Assembly: GCA_003598025.1 (NCBI GenBank)
Contig: QZKH01000006.1
Location: forward strand, 108,035-172,034
Length of the DNA stretch: 64,000 nt
Direction: 5' to 3'
Source: Candidatus Omnitrophota bacterium
GTDB taxonomy: Bacteria > Omnitrophota > Gorgyraeia > Gygaellales > Profunditerraquicolaceae
Shown: positions 3,200 through 63,749 of the stretch, in pieces
How the letters are laid out: each line of letters begins with the position of its first letter
Position numbering within the stretch: the first letter of the stretch is position 1
Notes under the pieces: model-generated
Seen by the model: only the letters and a program-made list of their open reading frames with translations
Databases searched by the model: none
What the model was told of the DNA's origin: nothing
Made by a program: the position numbers and the translations under genes

Positions 3200-3616
3200 A
3201 TGGAAATAACGGAGGTAAAGGTTTTCCTGAAGGATTCACCGGATAAAAAGCTGAAAGCTTACGCGACCGTAACTTTTGATAACGCTTTTGTCGTAAGAAA
3301 TATTAAGGTGATAGAAGGCTCAAGCGGGTTATTCATTGCAATGCCTTCCAGAAAGATAAAGCAGCCGTGCCAGAAGTGCGGCTTTAAAAATGAGTCACGC
3401 AGTAAGTATTGCAACCAGTGCGGAGCGCAGCTAGTCGTCAGTTCCCGGCCGCTGAGCCAGGAAGAAGCTGCAAATAATTCTCAACTCGAGCATAAAGATA
3501 TAGCCCATCCGATTACGCAGTCCTTTAGGGAATATCTTCAAAAGAGAGTTTTAGAGGCTTACGAACAAGAGAAAACAAGTGGCCATGCTAATGCAGGGCA
3601 TGCAGGAGCCGATTAG
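3200..3616 (+). CDS. spoVG: SpoVG family protein with C-terminal CxxC...CxxC zinc-ribbon extension
   Basis: N-terminus MEITEVKVFLKDSP...KLKAYATVTFDNAFVVRNIKVIEG matches SpoVG. The C-terminus contains CQKCG...CNQCG. An RBS (aaggagg) precedes the start. Confidence 0.75.
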   Translation: MEITEVKVFLKDSPDKKLKAYATVTFDNAFVVRNIKVIEGSSGLFIAMPSRKIKQPCQKCGFKNESRSKYCNQCGAQLVVSSRPLSQEEAANNSQLEHKDIAHPITQSFREYLQKRVLEAYEQEKTSGHANAGHAGAD

Positions 3617-58760: not shown

Positions 58761-58871
58761 TTCTTATTTTTATTGCTATTATTAATCAAAATTATAGAGA
58801 ATCCTCCAAGGTTTATTATAACACAGAGCATCAAAAAATCCAGCCTCTCTCGTGGGAGACAGAAAGCAAAA

Positions 58872-58897
58872 AGCCCAGCAAAAATATGCTGGGCTTT
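58872..58897 (+). terminator. terminator-like hairpin repeat (second copy)
   Basis: aagcccagca-aaaatat-gctgggctttt is ~85% identical to the 57388 hairpin including its flanks. Confidence 0.4.
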
Positions 58898-59024
58898 TCA
58901 AATTGGCTCCCCCTCTCGGCGCCGAACTTCGTTCGGCACTCCCTCACTTGCCTATGGCAAGTTCGGTCGCTCAACCTGTGCCTTTGGCACAGGTTCTTTG
59001 TATCACGCAGAGAAATAAATAAAA

Positions 59025-59058
59025 TAGCCTCCGGTTTTACCGGAGGCTATTTTATTTA
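59025..59058 (-). terminator. rho-independent terminator downstream of tRNA-Asn (minus strand)
   Basis: Perfect 10-bp stem tagcctccgg/ccggaggcta with T-runs on both strands. Confidence 0.55.
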
Positions 59059-59059
59059 A

Positions 59060-59323
59060 CTCCCCCTCGAGGACTCGAACCTCGGACCTGGTGGTTACAC
59101 TTAACCCGAAATTACTTCCGGAAGTGGACTATCTCATCTCCATAGCACTTGCAGTAGGAGGCGGGTATATAGTCTCTGCACATTTACTTACGTATTACCG
59201 TAAGATTTAGCTCAGGATTTCCCAAAATGGGATTCCCTGAATTAGCCCGCTTTTTCAACCACGGTTTCCCGTAGAAGCTGCCCTATTGACAGCCACTCGC
59301 TCTACCGACTGAGCTAAGGGGGA
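59060..59323 (-). tRNA. tRNA-Asn(GUU) interrupted by a group I intron (exons 59289-59323 and 59060-59097)
   Basis: Minus-strand exons join to TCCCCCTTAGCTCAGTCGGTAGAGCGAGTGGCTGT+TAACCACCAGGTCCGAGGTTCGAGTCCTCGAGGGGGAG. This gives U1-A72, anticodon loop CUGUUAA, G73 and T-loop TTCGAGT, as in bacterial tRNA-Asn. Confidence 0.7.
59098..59288 (-). ncRNA. group I self-splicing intron (191 nt) in the anticodon loop, between positions 35 and 36
   Basis: The 5' exon ends in U and pairs (GGCUGU with GCAGCU, U-G wobble at the splice site) with an internal guide. Core elements P (UCAGGGAA), Q (AAUCCUGA), R (GCAGAGACUAUA) and S (GAGAUAGUCC) are present. The intron ends in G. Confidence 0.65.
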
Positions 59324-59335
59324 ATAGTATCAAAT

Positions 59336-59363: not shown

Positions 59364-59730
59364 TACTATTTCTAGTAAGTGGTAGCCGTCTCATGTTGCG
59401 CCACTCCGCAGTCATCTACTGGCTGTAGGGATTCAAATATTTATTGATTAATCTTTTGGAAGGATTTAATTAATTGAAAAGCATACGCATTCTATATAGG
59501 GGCGGGACACTTCCTATGTATTCCATTATGGACCATAAGGATAGAAGGAAACGGTCCTCAGGATTCCAAGGCGCGGATCCGTTTCTCAATGCCCGGCATA
59601 TTTTTGCTGGGCTTTTTATTTTTGGTTTTACGGTAAGAAGTTTGATTTATTGACACCCTGTGTAAAATGCATTATAAATCGTCTTTATTTAAAGCGTTTA
59701 ATTTACAGAACATTAAATAGGGGGTAAAAG

Positions 59731-60114: not shown

Positions 60115-60321
60115 AACAGGCAATTAGATTAAGGTTTTTTACGGTCCTTTATGTCAAATATAATAGAAAAGGTTCGTTGGTTTTTTAGGTGAGAGGCCAG
60201 TTTCAAAAGCCCGACATTGATTTGTTGGGCTTTTTTGTTGCCTAATGATCACCTTCGACTTAACTTGCTTTATTAACCTCTCGTGGTAAAATAGATTAAC
60301 ATATCAGGTTTTCCGTATTTC

Positions 60322-60431
60322 TTATACGTTCGCGCTTACAAAACCGCACCTTGGAAGGTACGGATGGAGTGTGTACGCTCAGTATTTCGCTCCAAGAAAC
60401 CTCAGACTTTAGCCTAATGAGCTTCATTTGT
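60322..60431 (+). promoter_or_regulatory. conserved ~110-nt 5' leader element, copy 1
   Basis: Near-identical to 62267-62376, including a fully identical 42-nt core GGATGGAGTGTGTACGCTCAGTATTTCGCTCCAAGAAACCTC. Ends ~25 nt before the GT2 gene ATG. Confidence 0.4.
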
Positions 60432-60455
60432 TTTGCCAACGATTAAAGGATCCTT

Positions 60456-61226
60456 ATGAAAGAAAATCTATCCGTAGTCATTTTAGTCAAGAATGAAGAG
60501 CAAAGAATAGCTAAATGCCTTGATTCTGTGAGATGGGCTGACGAGATCATTGTGGTCGATGATGAAAGCACTGACAGGACAGTTGAAATCGCCCGTCAAT
60601 ATACATCAAAAGTATTTACTGACAAAAAAAAGGATATTGAAGGCAGGCATAGGAATTGGTCATATAGCCTGGCAAGAAATACCTGGGTTTTGAGCCTGGA
60701 TGCAGACGAAATAGTCACTCCGGAATTGAAAGAAGAGATAATACAGGCCATAAGGAGTAACCCTGTTGAAAACGGTTTTACCATTCCGCGCAGAAACTAC
60801 ATAGGTAATTATTGGGTCCGTCACGGAGGTTGGTACCCCAGCCCGCAGTTAAAACTCTTTAAAAGAGATAAATTCAAACATGAAGAAGTGGAGATACATG
60901 GGCGTGCTTTTATGGATGGCCCTTGCGGCCATTTGAAATACGACATTATCCACTATTCATACCGAGATATTGAAGATCTTATCCGGAAACTCAACAATCA
61001 GACAACCTGGGAAGCTCAAAAATGGCATAGATTACATAAGCCTATGCGTTTCGGAAGGTTCTTCTACAGGAGTATTGACAGATTTATCAGGACATACATT
61101 GCCAAAAAAGGCTATAAAGACGGCTTCATGGGGTTTGTGGTTGCCTTTAACGGAGCTTTATACCAGATCGTCAGTTATTTAAAATACCGGGAAATTATAT
61201 TAAATGAAAAAGAAAAAAATAAATAG
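60456..61226 (+). CDS. family 2 glycosyltransferase
   Basis: SVVILVKNEE...VVDDESTD...LDADE GT2 motifs. Confidence 0.8.
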   Translation: MKENLSVVILVKNEEQRIAKCLDSVRWADEIIVVDDESTDRTVEIARQYTSKVFTDKKKDIEGRHRNWSYSLARNTWVLSLDADEIVTPELKEEIIQAIRSNPVENGFTIPRRNYIGNYWVRHGGWYPSPQLKLFKRDKFKHEEVEIHGRAFMDGPCGHLKYDIIHYSYRDIEDLIRKLNNQTTWEAQKWHRLHKPMRFGRFFYRSIDRFIRTYIAKKGYKDGFMGFVVAFNGALYQIVSYLKYREIILNEKEKNK

Positions 61227-61677
61227 CCAGAGCCCTAATTTCATAAAGGAAGTATCAGGGGTTTTAATATTAATGATATGTTTGTGCGCTCCGGTTTTTG
61301 CCTTTGCTGAAACAATTAATTTAAAATCCGGGCAAAGATTAGAAAATGTAAAAATAACGGAAAAGACTGAAGAGTATGTCAAAGTTTATAATTATAGTAT
61401 TCTTGACGACGGCCAAGATGCAGGTTTTGTCATTACTTACAAAACAAGTGAAATCGACAGCATAGAGCCGGATAAAAGCTATAGAAAACATTCTGTGGTA
61501 TTAAATAAGATAGTCCTCAAATCTGGCGATGTAAAAATGGGGGTAATAGCAGATGCGAATCAAGATAATATAAAATTAGAAGATGCCGAAGGCTCCTCAA
61601 TGATTTATCCTTGGGATGATATTGATACTATAGATGGCAGGCAAGCAGGAGATTTAAAATCCAGTTTAAAACTTTAA
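61204..61677 (+). CDS. hypothetical secreted protein
   Basis: Lys-rich N-terminus plus signal peptide (LILMICLCAPVFAFA). Confidence 0.5.
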   Translation: MKKKKINSQSPNFIKEVSGVLILMICLCAPVFAFAETINLKSGQRLENVKITEKTEEYVKVYNYSILDDGQDAGFVITYKTSEIDSIEPDKSYRKHSVVLNKIVLKSGDVKMGVIADANQDNIKLEDAEGSSMIYPWDDIDTIDGRQAGDLKSSLKL

Positions 61678-61693
61678 ATCCAATAAATCCGCC

Positions 61694-62176
61694 ATGGCAA
61701 AAAAGCTCCAATTTATTATGGTATGGTTCCTCCCGCTTATTGTAATAGGCGGGTTTTTTTATCCATTACTGGGATACCTGGTAGTAGCGATGATGGCTTT
61801 CTTTTTAACGCTGTCGTTTTTTAAAGGCCGGTATTGGTGCTGGCACCTTTGCCCCAGGGGAGCCTTTTTAGATATTATTATCTCAAAACTTAGCTTCAAT
61901 AGGCCGTTACCAGGGATTTTTCTCAAGCAATGGTTCCGCTGGCTTATATTTTTCTTGTTTCTCAGTTTTTTAGCATTCCGTGTAACCAAGGCAGGCGCAA
62001 GCTTAATTGCTATAGGGATAATCTTCATTATAACTTGCCTAGTTACAACAATTATCTCGGTCATATTAGGTATTTCACTAAAACACAGAAGTTGGTGCGC
62101 TATTTGCCCAATGGGGACTCTCCAGGAAAAGATCGGCAAAATACATCAGTTCAAAGTAAAGAGCCAGCCTAAATAA
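61694..62176 (+). CDS. small polytopic membrane protein with two CxxCP motifs (NapH/MauN-type Fer4_5-like)
   Basis: CWHLCPRGAF and WCAICPMGTL motifs between TM helices. Confidence 0.5.
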   Translation: MAKKLQFIMVWFLPLIVIGGFFYPLLGYLVVAMMAFFLTLSFFKGRYWCWHLCPRGAFLDIIISKLSFNRPLPGIFLKQWFRWLIFFLFLSFLAFRVTKAGASLIAIGIIFIITCLVTTIISVILGISLKHRSWCAICPMGTLQEKIGKIHQFKVKSQPK

Positions 62177-62266
62177 TGAAACCAGCACCTCGTTTGATCT
62201 TTCAGCTTTCTTAATTCCACTTGTTTATAAAACTTTAATGATTATAATATAAATAAAAGGGAAAAT

Positions 62267-62376
62267 TTATACGTTCGCGGCCACAAACCCGCACCTTTCA
62301 AGTTGCGGATGGAGTGTGTACGCTCAGTATTTCGCTCCAAGAAACCTCGGGCTTTAACCCAAGGAGCTTCATTTGT
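62267..62376 (+). promoter_or_regulatory. conserved ~110-nt 5' leader element, copy 2
   Basis: See copy 1. Ends ~47 nt before the B12-binding radical SAM ATG. Confidence 0.4.
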
Positions 62377-62423: not shown

Positions 62424-63749
62424 ATGAAGATAGCTCTTGTTAATCTATTTTATAAACACGCAATGCCATGTCCTCCGCATGGAATCTTAAGCTTGATCAG
62501 TTTTTTAAATAAAGAATTTGGGGACAAAATAAAAGTCAGGTATTTTGATGAGTTGCCCGGGGTGGATATTAAAAAGGCGGTTATGGGGTTTAACCCCGAG
62601 TTTATAGGGATATCTTCTTTTACTCGTACCATAAACAGGGCCTATGAACTGGCGGATTATTTTAGAAAAAAGACTGATAGTATTGTGGCGTTGGGAGGGT
62701 TGCATCCTAGCATTCTGCCAGAAGAGAGCGCAAAATATGCAGATTATGTTATTGTGGGTGAGGGTGAAAAGGGGCTGGCAAGTTTAATTGGGAGTATCCT
62801 GGAAGGGAAGAGGCATCCTGGGCAACTGATATTCTCTGAGGCAATAGAGAACTTAGATTCTTTGCCGCAGTTTCCCTGGGATGTGCTAGACAGAGATTAC
62901 TATTCAGAAAGTAGCCAGTATACAATGGAGCATTTTGGCCTTCAGAAGAGCGATAAATACGTTGCTCTTTTGACTTCCCGGGGGTGCCCTTATAGGTGTA
63001 TGTTTTGTTATTCAAGTAAATCGCCCACAAGAGTACGCTATTTTTCTTCAGAGAGGATAATATCTGATATCGAATATTTCCTGGAAGAGTGGAAAGTGAA
63101 TTATTTCATTTTTAGTGATGATGATTTTTTATCTAATAAGGAAAGATTAAACCAATTCTGCAAATTAATTGATAAGAAAGGGCTGCAATTTAAATGGGGT
63201 TGCCAGGCTAACGTGGATAGCGTTGAGCCCGAAACATTAAGATTGATAAAGCAGCATGGGTGTGAAATCATTGCCTATGGGTTTGAGAGTGGTTCCCAAA
63301 AAATATTAAATTTCTTAAAAGGCAGAAGGGCAGATATCAGAGATAACAAATACGCTATTCATATTACTAAAAAAGCAGGCATTAAGGTATTTGGTTATAT
63401 AATGCTTGGTGTCCCTACCGAAACGCTCATGGATCTTTTTAAGACATTTTATTTTACACTGTTTAGCCCAATTGATATTATATCGCCAGGCAGGATCGTA
63501 GTCTATCCCGGAACAAAACTATGGGATTGGTGCGTTGAGAAAAATATTTTTAATGAGTCCGAGATTGACTTCACTAAGCCTTATAAGTATATTTATTTAA
63601 ATAATAAATATGTCCCTGAGAAATTCTTTGGGATGTTATATTATGGATTTCATAGGTTGGCAATTCCGGTTAAATGTCTGCTGCAGAGGAAGTTTGTTTT
63701 TGCTAAAACTTGGCGCACGGTCATAAATAAAGATAGAAAGAAAGAATAA
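62424..63749 (+). CDS. B12-binding domain radical SAM protein
   Basis: N-terminal B12-binding-like region then CPYRCMFC radical SAM motif. Confidence 0.8.
   Translation: MKIALVNLFYKHAMPCPPHGILSLISFLNKEFGDKIKVRYFDELPGVDIKKAVMGFNPEFIGISSFTRTINRAYELADYFRKKTDSIVALGGLHPSILPEESAKYADYVIVGEGEKGLASLIGSILEGKRHPGQLIFSEAIENLDSLPQFPWDVLDRDYYSESSQYTMEHFGLQKSDKYVALLTSRGCPYRCMFCYSSKSPTRVRYFSSERIISDIEYFLEEWKVNYFIFSDDDFLSNKERLNQFCKLIDKKGLQFKWGCQANVDSVEPETLRLIKQHGCEIIAYGFESGSQKILNFLKGRRADIRDNKYAIHITKKAGIKVFGYIMLGVPTETLMDLFKTFYFTLFSPIDIISPGRIVVYPGTKLWDWCVEKNIFNESEIDFTKPYKYIYLNNKYVPEKFFGMLYYGFHRLAIPVKCLLQRKFVFAKTWRTVINKDRKKE

Follow-up and report, generated by a model that had tools for sequence, protein, structure and literature searches.

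Near the end of a 64,000-nucleotide (nt) stretch of contig QZKH01000006.1 from a Candidatus Omnitrophota bacterium (hereafter the window), two almost identical sequences of about 110 nt each lie shortly upstream of a gene, the first before a family-2 glycosyltransferase (GT2) gene and the second before a B12-binding radical SAM gene. A preliminary description of this locus interpreted the pair as a shared riboswitch-like leader, or a small RNA (sRNA) target, that co-regulates two envelope-related operons. Here, we describe the repeat as a structured element present at ~24 distinct sites, determine its fold, its boundaries and the motif beside which it lies, and argue that the two apparent leaders are probably insertions of a small mobile element.

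A repeated element before two genes

Repeat search and pairwise alignment gave the same boundaries for a direct repeat of 110 nt with 88% identity (60322–60431 versus 62267–62376, both on the plus strand), in agreement with the preliminary description. All 13 differences between the two copies fall outside an identical 42-nt core, GGATGGAGTGTGTACGCTCAGTATTTCGCTCCAAGAAACCTC, located at 60362–60403 and 62307–62348; this core, also reported previously, occurs exactly twice in the window, where shuffled sequences are expected to contain none. The distance from the end of the repeat to the next ATG is 25 nt for copy 1 (GT2 gene, 60456) and 48 nt for copy 2 (radical SAM gene, 62424), so that both copies do end shortly before a gene, as had been noted. 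Pairwise alignment found the upstream flanks of the two copies to be unrelated, and the promoter-like hexamer pairs that precede them (Table 1) are not homologous to each other.

Copies were sought in the window and in the 10 kb past its end. A covariance model of the element (R1) recovered copy 1 at 60321–60428 (100.8 bits, E 2.6e-19) and copy 2 at 62266–62373 (110.4 bits, E 2e-21), and neither this model nor a pattern search allowing 3 mismatches found a third copy in that range. Rfam 15 returned no family matching the element in the window at the gathering threshold or at E<=10, and none in 19 homologous loci at E<=0.1, consistent with the earlier failure to match the repeat to a known riboswitch class. 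The small open reading frame in the core had been judged unlikely to encode a conserved peptide, and this judgement holds: homologues carry 1-nt insertions or deletions between the ATG and the core, and also in both hairpin loops described below, which interrupt the putative frames and led us to reject a conserved peptide on either strand. A sigma-54 or ECF promoter in the 5' part of the element was likewise rejected on inspection, as the spacings do not fit.

Copies in environmental metagenomes

A metagenome scan with GTATTTCGCTCCAAGAAACC, a 20-nt block from the right half of the core, returned 22 loci from freshwater-sediment, lake and groundwater samples (loci are denoted here by L and a number), and all 22 contain the whole element with the same two boundaries. 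The element consensus is TTTATACATTCGCGGCCAGAAAACCGCACCCTTCAGGGTGCGGATGAAYAATGGCCGCTNAGTATTTCGCTCCAAGAAACCGCGGGCTTTAGCCCGCGGAGCTTCATT, and a typical copy measures ~101–110 bp, with 102 bp for each of the window copies. Model R1 added a diverged copy at L024:1427-1532 (43 bits) and another at L037:18643-18750, giving ~24 distinct sites in total, and detected no copy in the other Omnitrophota loci L003–L009. Searches of IMG/VR and of plasmid and phage collections gave no match to the element. Scanning a genome collection with the left half of the core, GGATGGAGTGTGTACGCTC, produced four chance matches in Acidobacteria and others; in hindsight this half is lineage-specific, and the scan is therefore uninformative on distribution. 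Assignment to Omnitrophota applies to the window and to L018, and was taken from the names of the homologues of the GT2 and radical SAM proteins (window) and of S6 (L018).

Copies group by lineage and not by context. The window copies are each other's nearest relatives (87% identity), and L018, L024 and L035 have lineage-specific stems in common at three different sites. Two copies that are mutually closest, lie 1945 nt apart and are the only ones in the window could have arisen if a promoter or leader segment had recently been duplicated locally, in this genome only. This explanation is scarcely credible, however, because the same element with the same boundaries occurs at more than 20 sites in other metagenomes, and because the sequences upstream of the window copies, promoter-like hexamers included, are not homologous.

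A covarying fold with dispensable parts

To assess the fold we used an alignment of 17 sequences (A3), with 500 shuffles and slid pairing partners as controls. Across the fold 89% of cells are paired, and double changes occur in 16 pairs, as against 6.6 in the shuffles (none of the 500 reached 16) and 2–6 in the slid controls. The structure comprises an ATAC/GTAT helix, a long-range helix Ha (GCGGCCA/UGGCCGC) that surrounds hairpin Hb, and a hairpin Hd, in which 6 of the 8 pairs show double changes; three helices covary strongly across homologues. The block GTATTTCGCTCCAAGAAACC contributes to two of the pairings, its GTAT with ATAC at 60324–60327 and its GCTCC with GAGC at 60419–60422. The latter GCTCC/GGAGC pairing around Hd is formed in 98.8% of cells and becomes GCCC/GGGC in the diverged copy of L024.

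The preliminary description had proposed a structured, conserved element, and both the structure and two of its stems, CCGCA/TGCGG (Hb) and the GGGCUUUAACCC hairpin (Hd), are borne out by covariation among the 17 homologues. By contrast, its central hairpin (GGAGUG/CGCUCC) did not stand: pairing extends to only 58.8% of its cells, 5 of its 7 pairs fail in most homologues, and the segment instead takes part in the long-range helix GCGGCCA/UGGCCGC. The check for covariation and further copies that had been suggested at that stage returned many more copies, covarying, and no known family, rather than an isolated pair.

Individual copies depart from this plan in several ways. Internal insertions of 53 nt (L017) and 122 nt (L025) are present in two variants, Hb is missing from two others (L020, L021), and an 8-nt deletion that destroys Hd is found in five contigs from five samples (L019, L041-44). 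At L034:2181-2358 two opposed copies form a head-to-head palindromic dimer in which Hd is shared as the centre and both lack the GGAGCT end.

The element abuts an (A/T)ATGA motif

On one strand, the minus strand in the window, AATGA (19 copies) or TATGA (3 copies) abuts the same end of the element in 22 of 22 copies. In 10 of these the TGA of the flanking motif closes an open frame of 78–354 codons, whereas the other frames reach at most 38 codons; the closed frames are those of S6, RuvB, DapB, an OstA-like protein, MshEN and other genes. In the same 10 copies the next gene begins 2–20 nt past the other element end. With a stop codon at one end and a start codon 2–20 nt past the other, the element fits exactly between genes.

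Read on the AATGA strand, the element begins directly 3' of AATGA/TATGA with AGCTCC, continues through the GC-rich hairpin Hd and an invariant-looking middle block, and closes with hairpin Hb nested in Ha, followed by ...GCGAATGTATNA. U-rich runs follow both hairpins on this strand. Hd begins 6 nt from one end of the element, and Hb lies ~20 nt from the other. We detected no terminal inverted repeats: in 20 copies, the first 16 nt and the reverse-complemented last 16 nt agreed at 2–6 of 16 positions, which is about chance. Direct repeats flanking the putative boundaries amount to a single T. An attC site was rejected, since the element consists of more than one hairpin and lacks a GTTRRRY core, as was a SECIS element after the UGA, since an in-frame UAA follows four codons later.

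Presence and absence between close strains

The spacer between the S6 and SSB genes provides a comparison of related strains with and without the element. In L018 this spacer measures 121 nt and contains the element, while in L041–L044 it measures 113 nt, every copy there being the variant with the 8-nt deletion in Hd. A strain with a Pth in the 90% cluster of L018 encodes S6 (95 aa) and SSB (143 aa) of the same lengths, set 17 nt apart according to gene coordinates, the only form in which this spacer is known. The resulting length polymorphism is 104 nt, and 96 nt where Hd carries the deletion. When the 104 nt of AGCTCC...GTATAA are taken out of L018, what is left is TGA, AGATTAAGGAGAGGCTA and ATG, exactly 17 nt. 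This arithmetic assigns AATGA to the host and suggests an insert of ~104 nt with a 2-nt ambiguity, and by the same reckoning the inserts in the window would span the 102-bp intervals given in Table 1. The 104-nt difference in gene coordinates also fits an insertion without target duplication. If the element is inserted DNA, the empty S6–SSB allele would read ...GAATGA followed directly by AGATTAAGGAGAGGCTAATG. In the window itself, the S6–SSB junction consists of a TAA stop and a spacer of 1 nt, and the element is absent from it.

Unrelated neighbours and no common orientation

The genes beside the copies are unrelated to one another, and include S6/SSB/Pth/L25, RuvB, DapA/DapB, LptB, MshEN/PilB, PlsC and an SNF transporter, as well as response regulators, GreA, a HEPN/nucleotidyltransferase pair, GT2 and a carbamoyltransferase. 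Relative to the neighbouring genes, ~10 copies are co-directional and ~11 antisense. No motif, promoters included, is conserved outside the element on either side or in either orientation.

These contexts bear directly on the function proposed in the preliminary description. In favour of a riboswitch-like or sRNA-targeted leader that co-regulates the GT2 and radical SAM operons, both window copies are in sense orientation close before the start codons and downstream of promoter-like sequences, the conserved, covarying multi-helix fold resembles that of riboswitches and other structured 5' leaders, and several other copies lie near envelope or pilus genes (LptB, PlsC, GT2, PilB). We nevertheless consider co-regulation highly improbable. 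About half of the copies run antisense to the genes on both sides, filling the gap from a stop codon to the following start codon, many of the genes at the ~24 sites are unrelated housekeeping genes, and the element, in contrast to riboswitches, shows no consistent gene class or orientation, no conserved expression platform and no Rfam match. Presence and absence between close strains also argues against it, as do the relatives of the two genes. Upstream of the radical SAM gene's nearest relative (61% identity) is a spacer of 101 nt that is unrelated and contains no element, and GT2 homologues in other Omnitrophota (70–80% identity, L003–L007) sit inside lipopolysaccharide (LPS)-core operons, with GT9 heptosyltransferases and DegT, and have no intergenic leader. 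Synteny therefore gave no homologous leader for either gene.

The surroundings of the two window genes have features of their own. The GT2 gene of the window sits outside an LPS-core operon, and is followed by a gene for a 157-aa protein without a Pfam match and then by the gene for the Fer4_5 membrane protein. The gene cluster that runs from 62424 to L002:18048, ~8 kb beyond the window end, comprises three B12-binding radical SAM paralogues, an SBF-family transporter, a phosphatidylserine decarboxylase, a PMT_2 glycosyltransferase and a second GT2, and may be involved in lipid or envelope modification. GT9, PMT and GT2 genes adjoin the nearest relative (61% identity) of the first of these radical SAM genes.

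Functional RNA and ribozyme readings

The covarying fold raises the question of whether the element acts as an RNA. One such reading is a family of functional structured non-coding RNAs, either sRNA genes or operon RNA modules for processing, stability or termination, that was dispersed only secondarily. It would account for the strong covariation and the long, highly conserved unpaired blocks, for the U-rich runs, and for the intrinsic terminators, strong in L029, weak in L031 and found at these two copies only, that immediately follow the element, as expected of a free-standing sRNA gene. The wobble pairs are less clear. Overall, the helices contain 19 G-U and 27 A-C pairs, and with the two classes this close in number there is no single-strand RNA signature for either strand. 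Where the AATGA strand is sense to the neighbouring genes, however, we tallied 13 A-C versus 4 G-U, so that mismatches that would be G-U in the sense transcript prevail by 13 to 4. This asymmetry may reflect RNA-level maintenance in the transcribed orientation or a transcription-linked (C-to-T) mutation bias, and the two window copies show the opposite. Together with the random orientation, the lack of a conserved promoter outside the element, the presence and absence between close strains and the persistence in five samples of a variant with Hd destroyed, this makes a primarily functional RNA unlikely in our view, if a serious contender.

A new self-cleaving ribozyme, or another catalytic or processing RNA, is a narrower version of the same idea. 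RNAs of these kinds, too, are found in clusters and at diverse intergenic sites irrespective of orientation, and the varied contexts and orientations of the element and the 1.9 kb between the window copies would suit them. So would the multi-helix junction, the conserved unpaired nucleotides and a possible pseudoknot between AUGRA and UUCAU, for which 84% of cells are paired, with purine-to-purine changes opposite U only. However, the element shows no strand asymmetry and matches no known ribozyme, Hb with the AUGAA partner is dispensable (L020, L021), as is Hd (L019), and catalysis explains neither the strict adjacency to AATGA nor the insertion-deletion polymorphism. We regard this reading as very unlikely.

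Two probable insertions of a small mobile element

As gene-less, structured copies are scattered among unrelated genes and always lie beside (A/T)ATGA, we favour the interpretation that the "leaders" of the window are two insertions of a family of small, gene-less, non-autonomous and target-specific mobile elements, and consider it probable. The enzyme responsible would act in trans and recognise hairpin ends in single-stranded form together with the short adjacent target. The likeliest candidate would be a Y1 (HUH) transposase, as in IS200/IS605 elements or RAYTs, in which case the element would be PATE-like; we put forward this specific mechanism tentatively, as a possibility with somewhat less than even prospects. 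The helices may be maintained for mobilisation, or for an RNA made from the element. Under this model, both window copies would be intergenic insertions at ACAAATGA sites, a short distance downstream of promoter-like sequences, and as a result the element is probably transcribed in the 5' leaders of the GT2 and radical SAM genes. An effect of such a structured 5' untranslated region on the expression of either gene is possible, and would be an incidental by-product with no dedicated shared switch.

Subterminal hairpins and a transposon-adjacent target motif characterise IS200/IS605 elements, whose gene-less derivatives are the PATEs (PMC10055086). The features of the element suggest the single-strand "peel and paste" mode of these two groups. 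Like PATEs, which derive from IS200/IS605 and are moved in trans by Y1 TnpA, the element is ~100 bp long, gene-less and dispersed in either orientation, with no terminal inverted repeats, apparently no target duplication, a hairpin near each end and a conserved 4–5-nt motif outside one end that is comparable to the transposon-adjacent motif. On the AATGA strand an internal CCATTGTTCATCC beside one hairpin is complementary to the AATGAA junction, which is also PATE-like. In contrast to PATEs, the two hairpins of the element are dissimilar beyond CC...GG, a covarying long-range helix encloses one of them, and conservation of the middle block is unusually strong; neither a partner transposase nor a full-length element came to light. 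We know of no described PATE member with an (A/T)ATGA target that is often a stop codon.

Two other groups of repeats share some of these features. REPs are palindromes of 20–40 nt with a GTAG-type head, usually present in hundreds per genome. The element resembles REPs and REPINs, which are mobilised by RAYTs, in being extragenic, structured and multi-copy, in a possible dependence on a Y1-type enzyme in trans, and in forming inverted doublets (the L034 dimer). We rejected membership in this group because the element has ~102–104 nt and two domains, with two different hairpins in direct orientation and long-range pairing, is low in copy number (2 in ~74 kb) and gave no hit near the RAYT-like gene described below. 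ERIC- and Correia-type miniature inverted-repeat transposable elements (MITEs) are similar in size (~100–130 bp), in their transcribed intergenic positions within operons in both orientations, in their insertion-deletion variants and in their broad taxonomic range, but these MITEs form long imperfect palindromes, bounded by terminal inverted repeats and a TA target duplication. As the element shows no terminal inverted repeats and apparently no target duplication of fixed length, it was not classed as a MITE. Another Omnitrophota locus (L006:12500-12762) contains a RAYT/IS200-like Y1_Tnp gene (MARIARVVVPGLPHHIVQRGNRRQ...) preceded by two direct repeats, GGGGACACAATACTTAATT; model R1 found no copy of the element beside this gene.

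Several observations count against a mobile element. No autonomous element or transposase was found among the window open reading frames checked or beside the fetched copies, in an analysis that included no search aimed at one. Helices with compensatory changes make the fold more elaborate than the two simple hairpins at the ends of IS200/IS605 elements, and the copy density in the source genome is low, with 2 copies in ~74 kb. The terminators after the copies in L029 and L031 suit an sRNA gene, and the 92–97% identity between copies from different samples and habitats could equally reflect a constrained functional RNA. Because the search was made with the 20-nt block, its invariance is built in. 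Finally, the empty S6–SSB site is known by its coordinates only, so that gene coordinates are the basis both for the insertion boundaries and for the apparent lack of a target duplication.

A more novel proposal would give the conserved multi-helix core a role beyond serving a transposase. The core on the AATGA strand could be an omega-RNA-like guide whose 3' end extends into the flank, used by a TnpB/IscB-type nuclease in trans with AATGA as the adjacent motif, or the mobile element could carry a catalytic or processing RNA. We judge either of these a long shot. If the guide version were true, it would describe a gene-less, guide-only element that homes just after TGA stops across a candidate phylum.

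The family is undescribed in the uncultured phylum Omnitrophota (we found no description of such an element there in the literature), and a second, related one is hinted at. Its recognition removes a tempting false positive, since without it a conserved, covarying leader upstream of two envelope operons would be catalogued among orphan riboswitches. The family can be recognised by a clear sequence signature and by a covariance model, and its target, (A/T)ATGA, is precise and often coincides with a stop codon. In metagenomes, elements of this type are useful markers of strain-level genome dynamics, and they can alter operon expression because they are inserted between a stop codon and the next start codon. 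Should the family be tied to a Y1 transposase or to TnpB, it would provide a new target motif and possibly a compact guide-RNA scaffold.

The second structured repeat family in Omnitrophota consists of a GC hairpin, TAAATTCGC, a hairpin containing AACTTACGTTCGCTTTTGCTCCGTAAGTT, and then CTCATTTA, and was observed at L036:9037-9392, in L039, and at L037:7141, L033:6910 and L003:12442. The site occupied in L036 and L039 is empty in L037 and L038, a clean 97-nt presence/absence between near-identical strains, and its end motifs, TTCGC and TCATT, are like those of the element studied here; we count this second family in favour of the mobile reading.

Table 1. Positions of the element copies, their helices and flanking features in the window
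Feature	Position	Strand	Remarks
Element copy 1	60322–60423	+	TTATAC...GAGCT; repeat; putative inserted DNA, boundaries +/-2 nt; 5' region of GT2 gene
Element copy 2	62267–62368	+	repeat; putative inserted DNA; between Fer4_5 gene and B12-binding radical SAM gene
TCATT flank of copy 1	60424–60428	-	AATGA on the minus strand; putative host target motif, outside the insert
TCATT flank of copy 2	62369–62373	-	AATGA on the minus strand; putative target motif
20-nt block, copy 1	60382–60401	+	GTATTTCGCTCCAAGAAACC; exact in the 22 metagenome loci, which were retrieved with it
20-nt block, copy 2	62327–62346	+	GTATTTCGCTCCAAGAAACC
Helix Ha, copy 1	60332–60378	+	arms GCGCTTACA (60332–60340) and TGTGTACGC (60370–60378); 2 internal mismatches; encloses Hb; covarying, A3 columns 12–18 with 58–67
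Helix Ha, copy 2	62277–62285 and 62315–62323	+	arms
Hairpin Hb, copy 1	60344–60363	+	CCGCACCTTGGAAGGTACGG (CCGCA/TGCGG); covarying, A3 columns 26–33 with 39–49
Hairpin Hb, copy 2	62289–62308	+	equivalent of Hb in copy 1
Hairpin Hd, copy 1	60400–60419	+	CCTCAGAC...GCCTAATG; weakened; A3 columns 90–97 with 106–113
Hairpin Hd, copy 2	62345–62364	+	CCTCGGGCTTTAACCCAAGG
Promoter-like sequence upstream of copy 1	60265–60292	+	TTGCTT, 16 nt, TGgTAAAAT; putative, by eye, below scan threshold
Promoter-like sequence upstream of copy 2	62221–62248	+	TTGTTT, 16 nt, TATAAT; putative, by eye, below scan threshold
GT2 gene	60456–61226	+	family-2 glycosyltransferase
Fer4_5 gene	61694–62176
B12-binding radical SAM gene	62424–63749	+

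Other features of the window

Palindromes of a common sequence, AAAGCCCAGCAAAAATATGCTGGGCTTTT, stand at gene ends at 58870–58898, 59588–59616 and 60206–60234, and also at L002:4965; A-rich on one side and T-rich on the other, they resemble bidirectional intrinsic terminators. On the minus strand at 59038–59325 lies a tRNA gene split by a group I intron (Rfam RF00028, 73.5 bits, 59105–59298). ARAGORN calls this tRNA only after removal of the intron, and its identity depends on the splice site, Leu(UAA) being possible. A second sequence resembling the 3' half of a tRNA and ending in CCA, with no callable tRNA, is located at ~58892–58931 on the minus strand. At the other end of the window, positions 3200–3616 encode a 138-aa SpoVG homologue in which the 82-position SpoVG profile covers residues 1–123 and a zinc-ribbon match at residues 57–78 marks an inserted zinc ribbon.

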